Virus record (IMG/VR): IMGVR_UViG_3300036770_003016
Length of the DNA: 64,000 nucleotides
Direction: 5' to 3' (one strand)
DNA from: a virus
The notes beneath the pieces are model-generated. The model searched no databases. It was not told the DNA's origin and saw only the letters and a program-made list of their open reading frames with translations. The number at the start of each line of letters is the position of its first letter. The first letter of the stretch is position 1. The translations under genes and the position numbers were made by a program. Shown in pieces: positions 14,621 to 63,007 of this stretch.

Positions 14621-15388
14621 TTAAAGCTTTCTAATAATATCTTCTTCTATACATTCTTTTCCATACTGTATTTCAATAATACATAAATTATCTTTACCTA
14701 CATTTTCTAACCTGTGCCATTTTTTAAGTTCAACGAAATAACTGTCATGTTTTTGAATATTTTTTACTAAAACTTCTTCGTCATTAATCAATGTCGTTAT
14801 TTTACCAAACCCTTCTTCAACAAACCAAAACTCATTTCTGTTTTCATGGTATTGCATTGAAATTGATTTGCCAGGTTCCAATATCAATCTTTTAATCTTT
14901 GTTGTTTTAGAATCATAATATGTCATAAATTTACCCCATACTCTATTTTCGGTAGGGTGTTTCCATTCAGACAATATCCAACTAGAACTATTCTTTTTAT
15001 TTTCGCCACCTACACCAAATTTAAATTCTACTTGAGGATCGTCTTTAAAATTATTCATTTCTGGTATGTTGGTTTTTGTTCTATCTCCACCATTTGCAAA
15101 TATGATTTTTTGTTTTGGGAACATACTTTTTACTACAGAGATAGAATCACAAGCAGATCCATCAGAGTCATTAAAACCTATCGCCAACATCACGCCCTTT
15201 ATATTTTTAACTATATTAATTCTCTCTTCAAATGGCATGAATGCTTGGCCTTTTTTCTTTATCAACCACTCATCACTATTAACACCCACAACAACTCTTC
15301 CATAATTTTGAGCATCATGTATATAAGAAATATGCCCAGAATGAATGGGGTCAAAACCTCCAGTTACTATAACGATATTGTCTTTCAT
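14621..15388 (-). CDS. Cytidylyltransferase-family nucleotidyltransferase fused to mannose-6-phosphate-isomerase-type cupin
   Basis: TGGFDPIHSGH (HIGH motif), NSDEWL..KKG, FANGGDR; C-terminal RVWG, SMQYH..R.E.W, WHRLEN, EIQYG..C.EEDI. Confidence 0.9.
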   Translation of the reverse strand: MKDNIVIVTGGFDPIHSGHISYIHDAQNYGRVVVGVNSDEWLIKKKGQAFMPFEERINIVKNIKGVMLAIGFNDSDGSACDSISVVKSMFPKQKIIFANGGDRTKTNIPEMNNFKDDPQVEFKFGVGGENKKNSSSWILSEWKHPTENRVWGKFMTYYDSKTTKIKRLILEPGKSISMQYHENRNEFWFVEEGFGKITTLINDEEVLVKNIQKHDSYFVELKKWHRLENVGKDNLCIIEIQYGKECIEEDIIRKL

Positions 15389-16938
15389 AATTTTTTTGAA
15401 GATAAAAAACTACCTTTTTTATTTAACAGAGATTCAATTTTTGTTTTGCGTTTTTTCATTTCTTCAGATGAATTACTTGGATTACCAAACAAAAATGATT
15501 TCATTTTTTTATAAGTATCGTCAATTCTGAAAATTCTATCCCAATTTTCATATTGATTTTTACCAGTCCAACCAATATTGTGTATAAATTTAGATTTAAT
15601 TTCTGGGTGTTGAAAAGTACAGTTAGGATCAGACTGTATTCCTCCTTTACCATACTTGGAATTTAAATTTACATATTTTAAATCAGTTTCTTTTAATGAC
15701 TTAAAAACTACAAATCCATCATATGGTTCACCCATAGGAAGAAGTCTTTCAAATTTATAATTTTCTATAAAAGCTTCATTGAATATTTTAATGTCATTAT
15801 GTTTACCATTAAAAATTAAAATACCACTTTCAACATGATTTAAATCCCAATTTTCTTCTACTTGACAAGCTAAAAAATTATCTCCCAAAATATTTTTTGG
15901 AAAATTTGTATAATCGGCTTGTTTAAATACGCAATCTCCATCAAGCCAAATTAAATAATCGTCATTATGTTTTTGTAATACATCTTGAATAACAAAAGAT
16001 TTATAACTAAATCTCTCTATCATTGTTTTTACATAATCAGCATGTTTTGATTTTTTTCTCAATTCTTTTTTCCAACTGTCATGATGTGGTATTTCTGTAT
16101 TAAAATCTACATATGTGATATTAGGATGATTTATTTGTGGTACATTTCCTTCATAATAAATTTTAGCTTTAAAAGAAGTATAAAAATTTGAAACTTGTAT
16201 AAATGTTTCTATCCATTTTTTACCATACAATAAAAAACCATTTTCATTAAATGTTGTAAAAAATAATATATTGTTAGATTGGTTTCTTTTTTCTTGCATT
16301 ATTAAATTAGACATTCTCCAAGAATCATAATCATTTAAATGATTCATATTACTAGCTGCATGATGAATAAAAATATTTTTTTCTATTAGTAATTCATTAT
16401 TTAAAAATTGAACATCTTCATTGTCAATATAATTATTTCCTATAACAGAATAGTATTCACGCACTGCTCGATGTAAATTATGCATACCATATGATTGTGT
16501 ATCTTTATCTGTTATTGATTTTGCTTCTTCAATCATATAGTCTAATGCTAATTTTAAAACTGGATGATTTCTTTCAGCTCCAAAAAAGAAATTAGCTATG
16601 TTGTCTAATTCTTTCATGAATACTGCTTTTACTTTACCATTTACAAACTCATTTAAATTTTTCTTACAAGTAACATCCAAATCTGAATAGTAACCTCCAT
16701 AAATATAAATTACTGCTAAACGCCAAAAATCTGCTCGCATAATTGGTTGTGGCAATGATTCATACAACCTATGCACTTCTTCTCCAAAATTCTGTAATAT
16801 AAAAGCAGAACACATTTCATCACTACTAATTTTTCTTTTTAAATGTGGATTACTATACTTCCAAGAATTGTATTGATTCTTTAAAGACTTTGGAATATCT
16901 TCAGTTTTCCAAGTTTGCCATAATATATTAGGTATCAT
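15385..16938 (-). CDS. Two-domain glycosyltransferase (GT32/Och1-like DXD domain + second GT-A-like domain)
   Basis: MIP..LWQTWK, RADFWRL..IY.YGG.YSDLD; second domain RFSYK, LIWLDGD, ESG. Confidence 0.85.
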   Translation of the reverse strand: MIPNILWQTWKTEDIPKSLKNQYNSWKYSNPHLKRKISSDEMCSAFILQNFGEEVHRLYESLPQPIMRADFWRLAVIYIYGGYYSDLDVTCKKNLNEFVNGKVKAVFMKELDNIANFFFGAERNHPVLKLALDYMIEEAKSITDKDTQSYGMHNLHRAVREYYSVIGNNYIDNEDVQFLNNELLIEKNIFIHHAASNMNHLNDYDSWRMSNLIMQEKRNQSNNILFFTTFNENGFLLYGKKWIETFIQVSNFYTSFKAKIYYEGNVPQINHPNITYVDFNTEIPHHDSWKKELRKKSKHADYVKTMIERFSYKSFVIQDVLQKHNDDYLIWLDGDCVFKQADYTNFPKNILGDNFLACQVEENWDLNHVESGILIFNGKHNDIKIFNEAFIENYKFERLLPMGEPYDGFVVFKSLKETDLKYVNLNSKYGKGGIQSDPNCTFQHPEIKSKFIHNIGWTGKNQYENWDRIFRIDDTYKKMKSFLFGNPSNSSEEMKKRKTKIESLLNKKGSFLSSKKL

Positions 16939-53329: not shown

Positions 53330-54151
53330 TTATACCATACCAACAATTGGTGGTCCTGTTCTTCCTTTTGGAGCTATGTGGAAGTGTCTACTATAAATTT
53401 TAGAGTTTACATTGTCTGTCATCAAACCTGCTCTCATTACTCCAAAATTTCCTAAAGGTGAGTTTACAGAAACACCAGCATTTACTAATCCAACGCATAT
53501 GACATTACCAGGAACAGCTGCAGGTAACCCTATTGCCAATCCACCAAGAACAGATGTGAATCCTAATGGGCCTGCACTAACTCCAGTTCCAGCATCAATT
53601 CTAGTCAAAGAAGTGATCATGTCTGCTGTCATATCTCCCCCAACAGAAAGATCACCAGAAACATAAACATTGTCTCCACTAGTAAGTCGAATAGAACCTA
53701 ATCCAACAGCAGAACCTGCAGCAATAGTTGTATCTTCATTTGATGCAAGAGTTGTTTTCTTGTGTACATAAGTTGACATATCACCAAGAACTTCTAATTT
53801 ATAGTCACCATCTACTTTTTCAATTCTGTCACCACGAACATGAAGTATAGAATCTCCATTAATGGTTATGTTACAATGTCCTTCGATCAATACATTTTTG
53901 TTTTTAATTGTGATTTCATAACCGTCACCATAAACTTTATGTACTTCATCACCATTTGGATGCATTTCGATAAATGTACCAGTTCTATGCTGTAGACGAA
54001 TTCGTTCTCTATTTGGTGTATCATCCATTTCAAATGAATGACCAGACCTAGTTTGTGTACAGTTATTATATGGATACTGTGGTGGTGTTTCGTCGTTTGC
54101 TGGTGACTCTGGTTCTAACCACCCATGATCGTCTGCTGGTCTCTCTGCCAT
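53330..54151 (-). CDS. gp5: Central spike, gp5 C-terminal (beta-helix) portion
   Basis: YPYN...T.SGH..E.DDTP.RERI...H.TGTF.E.HP.G; V.G repeats; C-terminal HFH. Confidence 0.85.
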   Translation of the reverse strand: MAERPADDHGWLEPESPANDETPPQYPYNNCTQTRSGHSFEMDDTPNRERIRLQHRTGTFIEMHPNGDEVHKVYGDGYEITIKNKNVLIEGHCNITINGDSILHVRGDRIEKVDGDYKLEVLGDMSTYVHKKTTLASNEDTTIAAGSAVGLGSIRLTSGDNVYVSGDLSVGGDMTADMITSLTRIDAGTGVSAGPLGFTSVLGGLAIGLPAAVPGNVICVGLVNAGVSVNSPLGNFGVMRAGLMTDNVNSKIYSRHFHIAPKGRTGPPIVGMV

Positions 54152-54155
54152 AATT

Positions 54156-55256
54156 TTAGTGTTGTTTAAATTCGATTACAAAAGTATTGTCTGATAATAC
54201 ATCATCTTTTGATGGTAATGTATTCAGTAAAAATGTTTCTACTTCTTGACCAACTTGATTTACAGCTTCTGGTGATGCTGGGTTTGCCAATGCCTCTACA
54301 ACTTGTCCTGGTATGGCTAATGTTTCTGCTGCCTCTGCCAACAAATCTCTACTTGCCTGTACTATGTTATTGAACTCTGCTTGAAGGGCTGCAATATCTC
54401 CTATTGTACTACCTCCTTCTGGTGGTGTCAATAAGTCTGCAAATCCTTTTGCGAGTGCTGCATATGCCTTATCTAAACATTCTTGTAAAAATCTTCTTGC
54501 TTTTTCTGGCAAACTCAGTATGTAATCAATCAATGCTCTTATTTTCATTGCAAAGAGAATTAGTATTTGAGCTAAATCATTCAACTCACTAATTATACTT
54601 GTTATATATTTTATCTCTCTAGCAATTGCTTTTGCAAATTGAATAACTTTAGAGACTTCGCCATTTGTGTCAGAAAAACCTAATGCTTTCAATGCAGCAC
54701 GAATTGCCTTTCGTATCTCTTCAATAATTATACCAAATTTGGCTCTAACATATGCTACTGCTTTGTTTACTTCTGGTGATATATCACAGACAGACTTTCT
54801 TTCTTGATTTATAGCATTTGTTAAAGTGCCATCCATGACACCTCTTGTAATTCTAACTTGAGTTGGTTCTCCAATAACTCTGTCAACTTGTGATGATCTT
54901 GGTTTAGATGCGGAACCTTCTCTTCGAATTGCTTCTTGATAAACTATACTAGATTGAGAACTTTCAACTCCAGGTAGTACATTTAGAACAACAGGAATTT
55001 GAGCAAACTCACCATCTTGAAAAAATCCAAGAACCCAATCTCCCTCTCTGGGAGTAGCGTATGTATTTGGCGCATTTGTTGATAGTGCTACTTGAGCCCA
55101 AGGTAAAGTGTTTGTTGGAACAAGTTTTTTATCTTCAGAATGAAGACCAATAATCCTGACTCTAACCGAGCCAAGTTTTAATGGATCTAAGACATCTTCT
55201 ACGATGCCAATCCACCAAATAAAAGGTCGTTTTCCGTAAAAATCTTGAGGTATCAT
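54156..55256 (-). CDS. gp5: gp5 N-terminal OB-fold portion with helical extension
   Basis: WWIG.VED..DPL.LG.VRVRI.G.H, LPWA, P.EG.WV.GFF.DG...Q.P. Confidence 0.85.
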   Translation of the reverse strand: MIPQDFYGKRPFIWWIGIVEDVLDPLKLGSVRVRIIGLHSEDKKLVPTNTLPWAQVALSTNAPNTYATPREGDWVLGFFQDGEFAQIPVVLNVLPGVESSQSSIVYQEAIRREGSASKPRSSQVDRVIGEPTQVRITRGVMDGTLTNAINQERKSVCDISPEVNKAVAYVRAKFGIIIEEIRKAIRAALKALGFSDTNGEVSKVIQFAKAIAREIKYITSIISELNDLAQILILFAMKIRALIDYILSLPEKARRFLQECLDKAYAALAKGFADLLTPPEGGSTIGDIAALQAEFNNIVQASRDLLAEAAETLAIPGQVVEALANPASPEAVNQVGQEVETFLLNTLPSKDDVLSDNTFVIEFKQH

Positions 55257-57240: not shown

Positions 57241-58368
57241 TTAAGAAGTAGGAAAATTATAATCATCATATTGTGTTGATTGTGCAGTAAAACGATCTGC
57301 ACCAAAAAATGATTTTGTAACAATGTCTGTTTCTTTAAATTGCAAACTCATTCTAATAGCAACAGGCATACCTGTTCTACCAATACTAGGTTTAGGTTCG
57401 TTTGGAACTTCATAAGCAGTAAAACCATTTGGTGCATAATCTAAATCTATACTCTCCAAGACACATGTTGTTATTCTAGGAATGTTTGGATTTATTTTTC
57501 CGTTGTAATAAAATTGAACATCAAATTCTGATGGTGGAACTAAAAAGAATCCTTTACCTTCAGTTGAAATTTCTGGAGCCTGATGAAATTTTAAACGTGT
57601 AATTATTTTCTGAACTTCTGTTGCTTCCGATTCACTACGAGGATAAAAAACAAAATCAAATCTAAATGTTCTAAAAGAAGGAGTACTGTATATCAATTCT
57701 AATTTTGGATTTTGAACTACACCAAATATTGCTGCAAATCCAGAAGTTAAAAATGCACTACCTTTGGCTACTTCATTTGCAATAAATGGACTTAAGTTTT
57801 TAAATACATCGATTGCTCCTTGTTTAAATTCACTACTTTTTCGTATAGTATCTACAAGAGTTGATGTTGCATCAAGACCTCTTGCAATTGGATCATTACC
57901 AATTTCTAAACCAGAATACCCTTGATTGTGAATATAACTTAGAGTATCTGGCATGTATAGTGCGACAGTATCTCGCACTCTCTCAATCGTTCGTGTGAAA
58001 TTTAAAGTAACATCAGTTGTTGCTTTAGTTATATTTTGAACGGTTTCAGAACTTCCAAATACATTTTCAAATTTAGTTGAGGCTAAATTTGTCAAATCCG
58101 ATAATGATTGACCAGGAGAATATGATCTACCTTCAACTCTATCTTTTATGATCGTTGGTTGATCTCCAGTAGTTTGCCCTTTAAAATTCGTTTTCTTTTG
58201 TTGATTTATATGGAAAACGATATAGTGACCTTTATCAGCAGAACCTAAGTCTTGAGGATATCTGTAAATATCATAACTGTACTGACTTTCTAAAGCCAAT
58301 CCATTAGTTCCAAATCCAGTTCTTTTTGTGTTTTTAAAAGATATATCGGCAAAAGAGAAGAGTGCCAT
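57241..58368 (-). CDS. gp48: Baseplate tail-tube cap (start revised to MALFSF at 58368)
   Basis: YP.DL, LYMP, NP..E..Y..P.FR.F.F.F.F.P.S..E, P.EF...F, C.L....DY.PNG, F.E. Confidence 0.85.
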   Translation of the reverse strand: MALFSFADISFKNTKRTGFGTNGLALESQYSYDIYRYPQDLGSADKGHYIVFHINQQKKTNFKGQTTGDQPTIIKDRVEGRSYSPGQSLSDLTNLASTKFENVFGSSETVQNITKATTDVTLNFTRTIERVRDTVALYMPDTLSYIHNQGYSGLEIGNDPIARGLDATSTLVDTIRKSSEFKQGAIDVFKNLSPFIANEVAKGSAFLTSGFAAIFGVVQNPKLELIYSTPSFRTFRFDFVFYPRSESEATEVQKIITRLKFHQAPEISTEGKGFFLVPPSEFDVQFYYNGKINPNIPRITTCVLESIDLDYAPNGFTAYEVPNEPKPSIGRTGMPVAIRMSLQFKETDIVTKSFFGADRFTAQSTQYDDYNFPTS

Positions 58369-58384
58369 ATTTTTCCTTGAAGAG

Positions 58385-58401
58385 AATAAATAGTATTTAT
58401 A
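58385..58401. promoter_or_regulatory. Overlapping opposed late promoters (ATAAATA-G-TATTTAT palindrome) at the strand switch
   Basis: AATAAATA on + (58385-58392) and TATAAATA on - (58394-58401) in the 32-nt gap between the gp48 and gp4 starts. Confidence 0.8.
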
Positions 58402-58835
58402 TGAGCTACAAAGGAATTTATACACCAAAAAACCCGGCAAAATACAAAGGAGACCCAAATAACATCATATGGAGATCAACTTGGGAAGCAAGGGTTATGA
58501 AATGGTTGGATTTATCTGAAAGTGTACTATGGTGGTCTTCTGAAGAACTACCTATACGCTATTTCAATCCTATTGACAATAAGATCCATAGATACTTTCC
58601 AGATTTTATTGTAAAGATGAGAAAGAAAGATAACTCTGTTAAGACTTATGTGATTGAAGTGAAACCAGAATATCAGACTAAACAACCAGTTAAGAAAAGA
58701 CAAACACAGAAATTCATTAACGAATCAGTAACATACATAATCAATCAGTCTAAATGGAAAGCTGCAACAGAGTTTTGTAAAGATCATGGTTGGGAATTCA
58801 TGATACTTACAGAGAAGGACATAGGTATTACTTGA
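58401..58835 (+). CDS. gp4: Head completion nuclease (start revised to MSYKG at 58401)
   Basis: Y.G...P.NP.KY.GD...I..RS.WE, W.SEE..I.Y, H.YFPDF, EVKP..Q, N..KW.AA. Confidence 0.95.
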   Translation: MSYKGIYTPKNPAKYKGDPNNIIWRSTWEARVMKWLDLSESVLWWSSEELPIRYFNPIDNKIHRYFPDFIVKMRKKDNSVKTYVIEVKPEYQTKQPVKKRQTQKFINESVTYIINQSKWKAATEFCKDHGWEFMILTEKDIGIT

Positions 58836-59480: not shown

Positions 59481-60254
59481 ATGTCATTTTCACCAAATTT
59501 ATTTTTATCTAACTTAAATGCAAAAGACGGTTTGGCAAAACCAAATCGTTTTGAAGTTATTTTGCCAATACCACAGTACATCAATAACTTTATTGGCAAT
59601 TCGTTCATCGAAAAAATATTAAATTTACCAAATACAATTATAGCAGATGTTACTGATATTATAAGAAGAACATCTACAGATCAACAGTCAAGAAGTGACA
59701 ATCCTTCAATGACTCGTTACTTATCTTTGCAATGTGAAGCAGCAGAGTTACCAGGAAAAAGTTTAATCACACAAGATGTCAAAATATATGGCCCAACTTT
59801 TAAAGTTCCATATCAGACACAATATCAAGATACAAGTTTAACATTCCTTTGCACAAATGAATTCTATGAAAGAAAATTATTTGAAAAGTGGACTGAATCT
59901 ATCATGCCAACTGACACAAATAATCTCAGATATGCAAAAGGAAACGATACAAGATATCTAACAAATATAAAGATCATACAGTATGATGAATTCATTCGTC
60001 AAATATACATTGTTGAATTGCTAGATGCATTTCCTATTTCTATAGGCAATCAAGCTTTGTCTTGGAGTGATGATAACTTTCATAGACTGACTGTACAATT
60101 TGCATATCAAAAATACCGTGTTGTGTATGCTGGTAATTATGATCTAGTTCAAGCTGCAACAAGTTTATTTGGTTCAAAATTAACATCGTTTACTGAAAAA
60201 TTTTCTTCTGCAATTTCAAAACCTGTGGGATCAATATTTGACTTAGTAACATAA
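59481..60254 (+). CDS. gp54: Baseplate tail-tube initiator (gp19-family), gp54-like
   Basis: GLA.PNRFEV, L.CE.AELPG, F..W, L..AFP..I, L.V.FAY. Confidence 0.7.
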   Translation: MSFSPNLFLSNLNAKDGLAKPNRFEVILPIPQYINNFIGNSFIEKILNLPNTIIADVTDIIRRTSTDQQSRSDNPSMTRYLSLQCEAAELPGKSLITQDVKIYGPTFKVPYQTQYQDTSLTFLCTNEFYERKLFEKWTESIMPTDTNNLRYAKGNDTRYLTNIKIIQYDEFIRQIYIVELLDAFPISIGNQALSWSDDNFHRLTVQFAYQKYRVVYAGNYDLVQAATSLFGSKLTSFTEKFSSAISKPVGSIFDLVT

Positions 60255-60269
60255 CAATGGAGATATAAG

Positions 60270-60989
60270 ATGGCTTTACCTAAAATTGATGTGCCAATTC
60301 ATACGATAGATTTACCTTTAACTAAAAAGAAAATTCGTTATCGTCCGTTTTTAGTAAAAGAAGAAAAGATTCTTCTTATGGCAATGGAATCGCAAGATGA
60401 GAATACAATTTTTGATTCAATAAAACAAATAGTAAATAACTGTTCGTTAGATGAATTAGATGTTGATGATTTGCCAATAACAGATTTAGAATATTTCTTT
60501 TTACATCTAAGAGCTAGATCGGTTAGTGAAGTTGTTGATTTACAATATAAGTGCAACAACAAAATTAAAGAACAAGATTGTGGTAACATTGTAAAAGTTA
60601 AAGTAAACATATTAGAAATAAAACCAGAGTTTCAAAAAGACCATAGTACGAAAATACAAATAACAGATGAACTTGGTTTAATTATGAAGTATCCAAGTTT
60701 AAAAGTTATTCAAAACATAAAATCTGAAAATGAAGTAGATAGACTCATGGAAATTATTTTGAAATGTATAGATGCAATCTATGATAAGAACTCAATGTAT
60801 TATACTAAAGATGTGAGTGAAGAAGAATTAAAAGATTTCGTTGAGGGACTAACGCAACAACAATTTGTAAAGATACAGAAGTTTTTTGAGTCTGTTCCCA
60901 AGATGAAAAAGAATTTAAGCTTCAAATGTAATAAATGTGGGTATGAAGATACTGTTCTCGTAGAAGGTATACAAAATTTTTTCGAATAA
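60270..60989 (+). CDS. gp26: Baseplate hub assembly protein
   Basis: MALPK...P...L....YRPFLVKEEK.LL.A, D.EY.F..LRA.SV.E, KYP, C.KCG, EG.Q.FF. Confidence 0.92.
   Translation: MALPKIDVPIHTIDLPLTKKKIRYRPFLVKEEKILLMAMESQDENTIFDSIKQIVNNCSLDELDVDDLPITDLEYFFLHLRARSVSEVVDLQYKCNNKIKEQDCGNIVKVKVNILEIKPEFQKDHSTKIQITDELGLIMKYPSLKVIQNIKSENEVDRLMEIILKCIDAIYDKNSMYYTKDVSEEELKDFVEGLTQQQFVKIQKFFESVPKMKKNLSFKCNKCGYEDTVLVEGIQNFFE
60977..60983 (+). promoter_or_regulatory. Candidate -1 ribosomal frameshift heptamer T TTT TTC
   Basis: X XXY YYZ heptamer in the gp26 frame, one sense codon before its stop; -1 frame open to 61180. Confidence 0.7.
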
Positions 60990-61039
60990 CTTTTTGTCAT
61001 GATAATTTAAAAAACCACTATGAAACTAACTTCGCACTC

Positions 61040-61180
61040 ATGCAACATCACAAGTATAGTTTGGCAGAATTGGATAATTTGCTGCCGTGGGAAAAATCAA
61101 TTTATATAACACTACTGATGAATCACATTGAAGAAGAAAATGAAAAGATCAAACAACTAAACGCTAATAAAAAGAGATAA
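61040..61180 (+). CDS. gp51: gp51-like baseplate hub assembly protein (46 aa from ATG; absent from ORF track; probably the frameshift extension of gp26)
   Basis: Translates MQHHKYSLAELDNLLPWEKSIYITLLMNHIEEENEKIKQLNANKKR, like the short cyanophage gp51; frame open back to the slippery site; no SD. Confidence 0.8.
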   Translation: MQHHKYSLAELDNLLPWEKSIYITLLMNHIEEENEKIKQLNANKKR

Positions 61181-61183
61181 TAA

Positions 61184-63007
61184 ATGGCATTTGCAGACGT
61201 TATTAGAAAACAGAGAAGTGGTGGAAAGGGAGTCTTTGGTTCTCTCTCTAGTGCAGCAACAGAATCACTAAAAGAAAAAATGGATCCAAGAAATCTATTG
61301 GATCAAAAAGGTGTTCTGACTGCTCTGTTTCCAGGTCTAAAAAGTTATAAGACTAAACAAGTAGAAAGAAGTAGTAGGAGAATAGCTACTGGTCCAAGTT
61401 TAGTTTCTGTAAATAATGACACTCTAAATGCCATGAATGAGAAGTTAGATTTTATTGGCAAAAATACAATGTCATTACCAATAATGATGCGTGACATTAA
61501 TGTCATGCGTCAGAGTATGATTAAATTAGTTAAGTTACAAGGTGGGGAACAAAAAGATAGTGCTGATAAATTCTTTAAGACTTCTGCTGAACAAGAAAAA
61601 CTGTATGAGAATACATTAAAATCGAAAAAGGGGTCTACAGCACCAACAAAAGTTGGTGGAGAAGTTAAGACAAGTTCTATGGGTAATCTTGCATTAATGG
61701 CAACAGTATTTTTAGGTGTTCTTGGTGCTTATTTTACGAGTTCAGAATTTAAAGAGAAAGTCGATAACTTAATTGGTGGTTTAGTCAAGTCTGTTTTTGG
61801 AGAAACAACTTTTTCTGATTTAGTAACTGGTGTTACTGCTGCTATTGGAGCTTTAGCAGTATTGAAATTAACATTTATGGCTTTTGATACATTTATGAAA
61901 GGAATGATGACTCGACTTGGTACTAAAATATTTGGTCCTGGAGCTCCAGTACCAACACCAGGTGATGTTCCAGATGTTGATAAAGATAAAGCAAAGGGTA
62001 AAGGAAAATCCAAATATGGGACTATACAAGATAGACCAAAAGGCAATTTAGATAAAGCAAAAGAACTTGCAAGTAAAGCTAGAGGCGCAATGAACGCTAC
62101 TAATTTTGCAAGAATGGGCGCCCTTGGTCTTCTTGTTGGTGAAGCATATATGTTATATAAATTGATTGAGAGTGATTCACATGAAACGCCAAGTCAGGCA
62201 GATGTAGAGGAGGGTGTTGATGGTGGTTGGACACCAGAACAAGGGTTTACTGCTGACGGCGGTCCTGTTGATACAGATAAGATAAAGGGATTACCAAATG
62301 TACCAAACTATGTTGATCCAAGTGGAGCTAAAGCAGAACAAAATAGATTGAGCAATTATAAACCTTCAAGAGTTAGTAATAATGAACTTTTAGAAATGAT
62401 TGGAAAAGCTGAAGGTGGTGCCATGGGGTATGATGCCATCAATAAAGGCAAAGCAGGTGATACCCCAGAAGGTTTGCCTGGGTTATCAAACATGACTGTT
62501 GGACAAGTAATGCAACTTCAGAAAGACAAAAAAGTATTTGCTGCTGGTAAATATCAAATAATACCTACAACACTAAAAGGATTAGTTGATAGTGGTATCG
62601 TTAAGATTGAAGATAAATTTGATTCTGCTACACAAGACAAACTTGCAAATGAACTAATACAAAGACGATTGAATAGAGCTGGGTCTGATCCAATACAACA
62701 ACAATTAGAATTGTCTAAAGAATTTGCTTCAATAGCCAATCCACATACCGGCAGTTCATATTATGATGGAAAGGGAAATAACAAAGCAAGTATTGCTAGT
62801 ATTTTCACAAGAACTCCTGGTTCTACAATTGCAGCATCATCTGTCGCTGTTGCTGATGGTAAAATGGCTTCATCTATGCCACCTGTTGTTATCAATTCAC
62901 CACAAACAGTAAACAACATGGCTCAATCTGGTTCAAGTAATATTATTACTGCAAGTGTACTAGATGAAGAATTTGCTAGACTTCTTTTCGAAAGAGCAGT
63001 AATTTAA
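61184..63007 (+). CDS. Tape measure / hub protein (gp29-like) with C-terminal lysozyme-like domain
   Basis: 607 aa with hydrophobic helical segments; I.KAEG...GYD, MT..QV...Q, AAGKYQ.IP.TL, F....QD.LA, L..E.AS muramidase-like motifs; follows gp26/gp51. Confidence 0.7.
   Translation: MAFADVIRKQRSGGKGVFGSLSSAATESLKEKMDPRNLLDQKGVLTALFPGLKSYKTKQVERSSRRIATGPSLVSVNNDTLNAMNEKLDFIGKNTMSLPIMMRDINVMRQSMIKLVKLQGGEQKDSADKFFKTSAEQEKLYENTLKSKKGSTAPTKVGGEVKTSSMGNLALMATVFLGVLGAYFTSSEFKEKVDNLIGGLVKSVFGETTFSDLVTGVTAAIGALAVLKLTFMAFDTFMKGMMTRLGTKIFGPGAPVPTPGDVPDVDKDKAKGKGKSKYGTIQDRPKGNLDKAKELASKARGAMNATNFARMGALGLLVGEAYMLYKLIESDSHETPSQADVEEGVDGGWTPEQGFTADGGPVDTDKIKGLPNVPNYVDPSGAKAEQNRLSNYKPSRVSNNELLEMIGKAEGGAMGYDAINKGKAGDTPEGLPGLSNMTVGQVMQLQKDKKVFAAGKYQIIPTTLKGLVDSGIVKIEDKFDSATQDKLANELIQRRLNRAGSDPIQQQLELSKEFASIANPHTGSSYYDGKGNNKASIASIFTRTPGSTIAASSVAVADGKMASSMPPVVINSPQTVNNMAQSGSSNIITASVLDEEFARLLFERAVI

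Follow-up and report, generated by a model that had tools for sequence, protein, structure and literature searches.

A programmed -1 frameshift in the genes for tail assembly chaperones is held to be almost universal among phages with long tails. Xu, Hendrix and Duda are said to have described in 2004 a conserved frameshift of this kind in the tail assembly chaperone genes of these phages, with gpG and gpGT of phage lambda, and Christie and colleagues reportedly described the E/E' pair of phage P2 in 2002. Outside phages, the -1 frameshift of Escherichia coli dnaX has a Shine-Dalgarno (SD)-like element about 10 nucleotides upstream and a strong hairpin downstream. To our knowledge, T4 and its relatives are treated as lacking a tail chaperone frameshift. 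The HK97 chaperone gp13 and its frameshift product are annotated in NC_002167. Here we analyzed a stretch of 64,000 nucleotides of viral DNA from the IMG/VR record IMGVR_UViG_3300036770_003016 (the window, by which we mean this whole stretch; 32.8% G+C) that carries a gene of the gp26 family overlapped by a second frame, part of which is named 'gp51' in databases. We consider it highly probable that gene 26 of the window, which stems from an uncultured relative of T4, is a recoded gene giving rise to products of 239 and 303 amino acids by a -1 slip on the heptamer TTTTTTC. What is new here is very probably a recoded tail-chaperone gene in a protein family and a phage group without such annotation. 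A full-text literature search found no published report of a gp26/gp51 frameshift, which is weak evidence of absence because most subscription journals lie outside that search.

The closest described proteins are those of T4, whose gp26 and gp51 appear among the hub assembly chaperones in Table 2 of Leiman et al. (2010; PMC3004832). In T4, the one phage for which this is known, gp51 is needed for hub assembly and is absent from the virion, and the same authors do not mention a frameshift in gp26/gp51 (PMC3004832). In the window, the corresponding locus is composed of the following features:

60270..60989, + strand: gp26-like baseplate-hub chaperone open reading frame (ORF), the short product (0 frame, 239 amino acids)
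60963..60967, + strand: Shine-Dalgarno-like GAAGG, candidate upstream stimulator, read from the sequence, 9 nucleotides before the heptamer
60977..60983, + strand: slippery heptamer T_TTT_TTC in X_XXY_YYZ phase, proposed site of a tandem -1 slip
60987..60989, + strand: TAA stop of the 0 frame, one codon past the heptamer
60980..61180, + strand: -1 extension (re-read Phe codon, 65 codons and TAA), the predicted C-terminal 66 residues of the 303-residue product
61040..61042, + strand: internal ATG, the usual 'gp51' start, residue 21 of the extension

The gp26-like ORF ends CAA AAT TTT TTC GAA TAA, and the open -1 frame spans 60947 to the TAA at 61178-61180; the predicted products have 239 residues and, after a tandem -1 slip, 238 + 65 = 303 residues. 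The original prediction, a reading of the letters of this DNA, had given the gene end, the heptamer, the -1 frame of 65 codons to 61180 and both product sizes exactly as we find them, and its estimate of about 10 nucleotides between GAAGG and the heptamer compares with the 9 counted here. It had also held that the internal ATG lacks a ribosome-binding motif, and this stands: the ATG at 61040 is the earliest ATG, GTG or TTG in the -1 frame past the gp26 stop, and inspection by eye showed no GGAG-like or other SD-like motif upstream of it. No promoter or terminator between the two frames scored above shuffled expectation on the + strand. The genome record as a whole (120 kb, estimated 68% complete) contains one gp26, one extension and no separate gp51.

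A slippery heptamer in a window as rich in A and T as this one proves little by itself, and it is conservation that settles the question. A single-protein query yielded 80 IMG/VR loci whose gp26 is 44-62% identical to that of the window. All 80 carry the run in phase, as TTTTTTC in 77 and as TTTTTTT in 3, and all 80 have the 0-frame stop one codon past it, while the -1 ORF is open for 59-70 codons in each of the 78 loci long enough to contain its end (in two loci the contig stops short of it). The same anatomy is present in the cultured cyanophages Sf-CH11, P-SSM2, P-TIM40 and S-ShM2 and in Vibrio phage nt-1, Aeromonas phage AS-sw and Stenotrophomonas phage Bhz51; the heptamer reads T_TTT_TTT in Sinorhizobium phage phiN3 and, nine codons ahead of the stop, T_TTT_TTA in Rhizobium phage RHph_I1_18. 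The conservation of the heptamer in gp26 3' ends, proposed at the outset as a check, is thus borne out in metagenomic loci and in cyanophage, vibriophage, Aeromonas, Stenotrophomonas and rhizobiophage isolates alike, and the heptamer, the frame and the peptide are kept down to about 25% protein identity across the 80 metagenomic and 9 cultured relatives.

The pattern of substitutions at the junction points in the same direction. For entropy and codon counts we used 47 representatives less than 90% identical to one another across the junction, which are not phylogenetically independent. In this set the entropy of the six T is zero, against 0.85-1.94 bits (mostly about 1.7) at nearby third positions of the 0 frame, and the stop lies exactly one codon past the heptamer in 46 of 47. 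The codon before the Phe pair is AGT in 27, AAT in 14, TCT in 4, GCT in 1 and GAT in 1, such that the residue can be N, S, A or D and the third base is always T; its Ser codons end in T in 31 of 31 cases, compared with 49% elsewhere in the same genes. Similarly, Phe-Phe is written TTTTTC in 43 of the 47 at the site and in 17% of the other Phe-Phe pairs of these genes. Together, these counts show that the constraint at the site acts on the nucleotides rather than on the amino acids. Upstream, the motif GARGG is nearly invariant in the same set and also encodes a conserved Glu-Gly.

Evidence that the -1 frame is translated from the junction onward comes from the stretch that precedes the annotated 'gp51' Met. 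The original prediction had asked whether relatives have stops between the heptamer and this Met; we found none. From the gp26 stop to the Met, the entropies at codon positions 1/2/3 of the -1 frame are 0.99/0.61/1.30, indistinguishable from those past the Met (0.93/0.52/1.30) and similar to those of gp26 itself (1.07/0.61/1.57), which shows that this stretch of 20 codons evolves like a protein-coding one in the -1 frame. The peptide encoded before the Met is conserved everywhere, and the first ATG, GTG or TTG occurs at codon 0, 1, 7, 10, 11, 17 or 18, varying by locus. Neither the window nor P-TIM40 has an ATG before the conserved Met, and the window also has no GTG or TTG there; in some relatives the annotated Met is itself replaced by GTG or TTG. 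A usable start upstream of the conserved peptide is therefore absent in the window and inconsistent among its relatives. Moreover, when the 0-frame protein and the extension were modeled separately, the AlphaFold2 model of the extension alone (mean predicted local distance difference test (pLDDT) 73) placed a helix at residues 10-24 that spans Met 21, so that a start at this Met would cut the helix.

The strongest point, which the original prediction did not contain, is that T4 gp51 is, as judged from family profiles and alignments, the in-frame equivalent of the proposed fusion. The 0-frame protein of the window matches PF12322 (T4_baseplate) over residues 10-239 with an expect value (E) of 3.6e-58 and 197.3 bits (cut-off 24.5), and phrog_150 at profile positions 5-233 of 282 (E 9.4e-65), with no match to phrog_634. 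The -1 peptide takes up where this leaves off: it matches phrog_150 positions 229-278 and phrog_634 positions 53-120 of 121, with no PF12322 match, and in the stop-to-stop translation both PHROG matches start at residue 9, which is the heptamer, 23 codons before the Met. T4 gp51 (249 residues) contains all of this in one frame: PF12322 covers residues 1-201, with 48 more residues beyond it, phrog_150 is matched at positions 13-280, and phrog_634 by residues 147-246. T4 gp26 (208 residues) has PF12322 over residues 1-206 and phrog_150 positions 14-235 with no phrog_634 match. Residues 200-244 of T4 gp51 align with the window extension from its residue 1 (BLASTP E 0.002), and a profile of 40 extension sequences matches gp51 residues 200-241 (hhalign E 4e-5, probability 70%). 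For the body of T4 gp51, family membership was read from Pfam and PHROG; a direct hhalign comparison with the gp26 profile returned only a local, zinc-ribbon-like match. An alignment of 12 proteins has three invariant columns, among them the junction Phe, past which gp51 runs on into its tail.

In the window, the gp51-type C-terminal tail is present through the -1 frame only. By these alignments, gp26 plus 'gp51' of the window is the collinear counterpart of T4 gp51, and because the 0 and -1 frames together are collinear with a single-frame protein, the locus bears the classical signature of a frameshifted gene. T4 gene 26 requires no shift, and its 3' end (GAG TTC TTT GAG TTA CTA TAA) is not slippery. 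Full-length, in-frame gp51 is present in 1375 phage records, which according to the organism tally and 40 rows sampled across their ranking belong mostly to T-even-type phages of enterobacteria, Acinetobacter and Aeromonas. The gp26 family as such occurs in 1744 phage records. A search for longer natural fusions with the extension as query returned five odd proteins that resemble deletions or chimeras, to which we give no weight. The Pfam accession PF28602.1 is recorded on proteins with the extension, and a recent release of Pfam may already contain a domain for the gp51 tail.

These results bear directly on the explanation that keeps closest to current annotation, namely that no recoding takes place and that a small protein is made alone as a separate 'gp51', either from the ATG at 61040 (46 residues) or, in relatives, by termination-reinitiation on a start codon overlapping the gp26 stop or located after it (about 62 residues). 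Every public record that we inspected annotates two genes, the Met is nearly invariant with GTG and TTG as its substitutes, and some loci have an ATG at codon 0 or 1 past the stop, all of which would fit an independent gene. However, the window and many relatives have no ATG, GTG or TTG from the stop to codon 18 and yet show conserved codons and coding periodicity in this stretch, and the alignments with the family profiles and with T4 gp51 extend all the way to the heptamer rather than to the Met. A separate gene would also leave unexplained the invariant six T, the fixed T of an otherwise variable preceding codon and the absence of the run from T4 gene 26, and the lack of an SD-like motif before 61040 does not favor it either. 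We therefore regard independent production of 'gp51' as unlikely.

The anatomy of gene 26, its conservation, the coding overlap and the collinearity with T4 gp51 are shown by the sequences; slippage, along with its efficiency, its stimulators and the function of the pair, is an inference. Most ribosomes would read AAT TTT TTC GAA and terminate, giving the 239-residue hub-assembly chaperone of the gp26 type. A minority would slip by -1 with tRNA-Phe on UUU in the P site and on UUC in the A site of U_UUU_UUC, and the slipped ribosomes would read 65 more codons to produce a protein of 303 residues, with the same body and a helical C-terminal domain of about 65 residues. This long form would be the counterpart of T4 gp51, which in T-even phages is the product of a separate, duplicated gene, and the 46-residue 'gp51' ORF of the records would not be an independent gene. 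To judge by the analogy of lambda G/GT, P2 E/E' and T4 genetics, the two forms probably cooperate when the central hub is assembled around the tail-length protein, the long form being the scarcer one. We believe that a tandem -1 slip of two tRNA-Phe on U_UUU_UUC is the simplest reading. The spacing of GARGG is compatible with dnaX-type stimulation. The fixed position of the 0-frame stop may matter, or it may follow from a conserved hydrophobic residue of the -1 frame (NTA/NTG).

Several observations weigh against the recoding of gene 26. No conserved downstream RNA structure was found by RNAalifold over 42 sequences (0 pairs), and the 92 nucleotides downstream of the heptamer in the window fold no better than shuffled sequence (z +0.88); Rfam gave no family match. 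Any role of GARGG as a nucleotide signal is inseparable from the protein constraint on Glu-Gly. The similarity between the extension and the T4 gp51 tail is modest, at 24% identity. About one quarter of the relatives carry an ATG at or overlapping the gp26 stop, where a separate product of about 62 residues could be made by coupling. Three Ackermannviridae have only ATT TTC ATT TAA and two Vibrio phages only CTT TTC, with no canonical heptamer in either. Finally, the window contains 8 in-phase TTTTTTY among the 20,093 codons counted in the heptamer survey, and in six other ORFs of 150 codons or more a slippery heptamer lies in phase no further than 20 codons from the stop.

The same five distant phages offer an observation in their own right: these lineages, the two Vibrio phages with CTT TTC NNN TAA, keep a homologous -1 ORF of 50-66 codons with only four T. 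Among the Ackermannviridae, LIMEstone1 shows TAATG coupling and has a gp26 that its record calls a 'confirmed structural protein'; in Marshall and vB_KpnM-20 the stretch lacks a start codon and is left unannotated.

The absence of a downstream RNA stimulator in the RNAalifold and shuffling analyses would fit an origin of the long form by transcriptional rather than ribosomal slippage, with RNA polymerase adding one U on the six-T run so that some mRNAs carry the extension in frame. A one-base insertion would yield exactly the 303-residue product, and homopolymer runs are a known substrate of such slippage. Documented bacterial cases, however, involve runs of about 8-10 bases, against which six is short, and the run never exceeds 7 in the 89 loci although a longer one would slip better. 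The C at position 7 in 43 of the 47 representatives suits a codon pair of the X_XXY_YYZ type better than it does selection for run length, and related lineages keep four T only. We consider transcriptional slippage very unlikely. The remaining idea, that the -1 frame is an open stretch arising by chance in AT-rich DNA and overlapping gp26 without function, could draw on how common in-phase slippery heptamers are near gene ends in the window, but the comparative data already contradict it, since heptamer, frame and peptide persist throughout the metagenomic and cultured relatives and the extension is homologous to the T4 gp51 tail, and its probability is close to nil. A -1 frameshift that fuses gp26 to the 'gp51' extension, as originally predicted, is thus supported by conservation, by coding overlap and by collinearity with T4 gp51.

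Whether the recoded gene 26 is also an equivalent of the lambda G/GT chaperones, as the original prediction went on to claim, is a separate matter on which the evidence is divided. The AlphaFold2 model of the gp26-like protein (mean pLDDT 88.6, predicted template modeling score 0.82) was compared exhaustively with 48,161 PDB representatives, and the best matches were the following, all of them with Z below 8 and therefore in the range in which the tool warns of common arrangements:

3fgx, an uncharacterised Bacillus protein: residues 1-95 of the model, Z 7.8
2ob9, the HK97 tail assembly chaperone: residues 1-95 of the model, Z 7.1, root-mean-square deviation 3.2 over 80 residues
3klu, Bacillus subtilis YqbN: residues 1-95 of the model, Z 6.8
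5ir0, Vibrio cholerae PLE ORF19: residues 1-95 of the model, Z 5.6
next PDB entry after these four: unrelated, Z 4.2

This comparison supports a chaperone-like N-terminal domain in the predicted structure of gp26. Foldseek of the gp26 model against the PDB gave no match at E <=0.001. No link was found at the level of sequence: a profile search of PDB sequences with gp26 was empty at E up to 10, the gp26 profile and HK97 gp13 matched in hhalign with a probability of 0.1%, and a Pfam scan at E up to 1 found none of the Phage_TAC families. This weakens the case for homology to the tail assembly chaperone families, not the case for analogy, as such families are very diverse. The architecture at this locus is of the lambda G/GT type, with overlapping frames, a conserved in-phase heptamer close to where the first frame ends, and a second frame that lacks a conserved start. 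The odds that the gp26/extension pair works like G/GT are about even, and we do not place the pair in that family.

The rest of the gp26 protein, residues ~95-239, has no G-type counterpart and contains invariant Cys residues at positions 104, 220 and 223. Four Cys (58, 104, 220 and 223) are invariant across 40 gp26 proteins, and T4 gp51 has weak zinc-ribbon matches; a zinc-binding module in the chaperone is possible. The C-terminal half of the gp26 model gives weak matches (Z 3.0-3.4) to peptide-binding domains of Hsp40.

The genes that flank the pair on the same strand are the following:

59481..60254, + strand: tail-tube-family gene (gp54-type), directly upstream; phrog_45 'tail tube', E 2.9e-35
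61184..63007, + strand: downstream protein of 607 amino acids, candidate tape measure in the gp29 position, with hydrophobic segments and a muralytic-like domain at about residues 394-539

Vibrio phage nt-1 and Sinorhizobium phage phiN3 also have a tube-family gene followed by gp26, with the upstream gene annotated gp54 or tail tube. The 607-residue protein had no Pfam, NCBIfam or PDB sequence match and no BLASTP similarity to T4 gp29; it matches phrog_30077 and phrog_37890, both of unknown function. Its Atlas neighbors carry lysozyme or SLT domains, and its Atlas model has a mean pLDDT of 0.50. In its size, hydrophobic segments, muralytic-like domain and low model confidence it resembles many tape measures, and in one rhizobiophage record the protein two genes past 'gp51' is labelled tape measure. 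Since a gp5-type gene lies on the opposite strand, together with gp48- and gp53-type genes, the 607-residue protein is not the gp5 spike, and we treat it as a candidate tape measure. The original claim of a G/GT equivalent placed just upstream of a tape-measure-like gene is supported only in part.

Three further stretches of the window are worth recording. The gp5-type spike appears as two adjacent ORFs at 53330-55256 on the - strand, one matching phrog_430 positions 15-140 and the other positions 332-468, neither of which shows a lysozyme domain match; the muralytic-like domain is found instead in the 607-residue protein, and a transfer of the cell-wall enzyme from the spike to the candidate tape measure is possible. 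An ORF of 157 amino acids at 58362-58835 on the + strand lies between the gp48-type gene (- strand) and a gp2-type DNA end protector gene (+ strand), and it shares its first 97 bases with the 5' end listed for the gp48-type ORF. Elsewhere, an AAAAAAA heptamer stands one codon before the stop of a 517-residue ORF (15385-16938, - strand); the gene that follows is in its -1 frame (14621-16938 region), and the site resembles an ordinary 4-base gene overlap rather than recoding.

If gene 26 is recoded as we propose, the T4 superfamily joins the tail-chaperone frameshift rule and gp51 gains a reading as the long, 'GT-like' form of gp26. It would also offer a natural experiment in which most lineages achieve a function through recoding and the T-evens achieve it with two genes, and the short ORFs of cyanophages and vibriophages annotated as 'baseplate hub assembly catalyst' would be C-terminal pieces and so a systematic annotation error. 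A broader proposal is that gp26/gp51 is the long-missing G/GT-type chaperone of the T4 superfamily, that the -1 shift on six T is ancestral and still prevalent (in cyanophages, KVP40-type vibriophages, rhizobiophages and many uncultured lineages), and that the T-evens alone have swapped it for a duplication. Taken as one joint claim, this could in our view fall either way with equal ease. If it holds, it would explain the old puzzle of gp51 acting 'catalytically' in hub assembly, and hundreds of database records would annotate a fragment of a frameshift product as a gene.

Set beside the known systems, the locus shares features with each. Of these, dnaX has in common with it an SD-like element about 10 nucleotides before a homopolymeric heptamer, but in dnaX a strong hairpin follows, which was not found here, and the shifted frame ends after very few codons, whereas here it would add a domain. 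P2 E/E' belongs to a contractile tail and, as proposed here, reportedly involves a -1 shift on a six-T heptamer close to where the shorter ORF ends, with the tape measure gene of P2 downstream; the protein families are not known to be related by sequence. With lambda G/GT and HK97 the locus has in common a short and a C-terminally extended product (both predicted here), a 0/-1 overlap with the slip near the end of the short ORF, and a position that follows a tube-family gene and precedes a long protein of poor conservation. It differs from them in that gp26 is about twice as long, with an additional domain of ~140 residues containing invariant Cys pairs. The closest likeness in protein family is to T4 itself, where PF12322 is common to gp26 and gp51, the short form of the window corresponds to gp26 and the short form plus extension to gp51, and the setting among baseplate and tail genes is the same. 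In T4, gp51 is followed by genes 27, 28 and 29, whereas in the window the pair is followed directly by the 607-residue protein; and where T4 has two separate, divergently transcribed genes, 26 and 51, a single gene here apparently gives rise to both forms by frameshifting.

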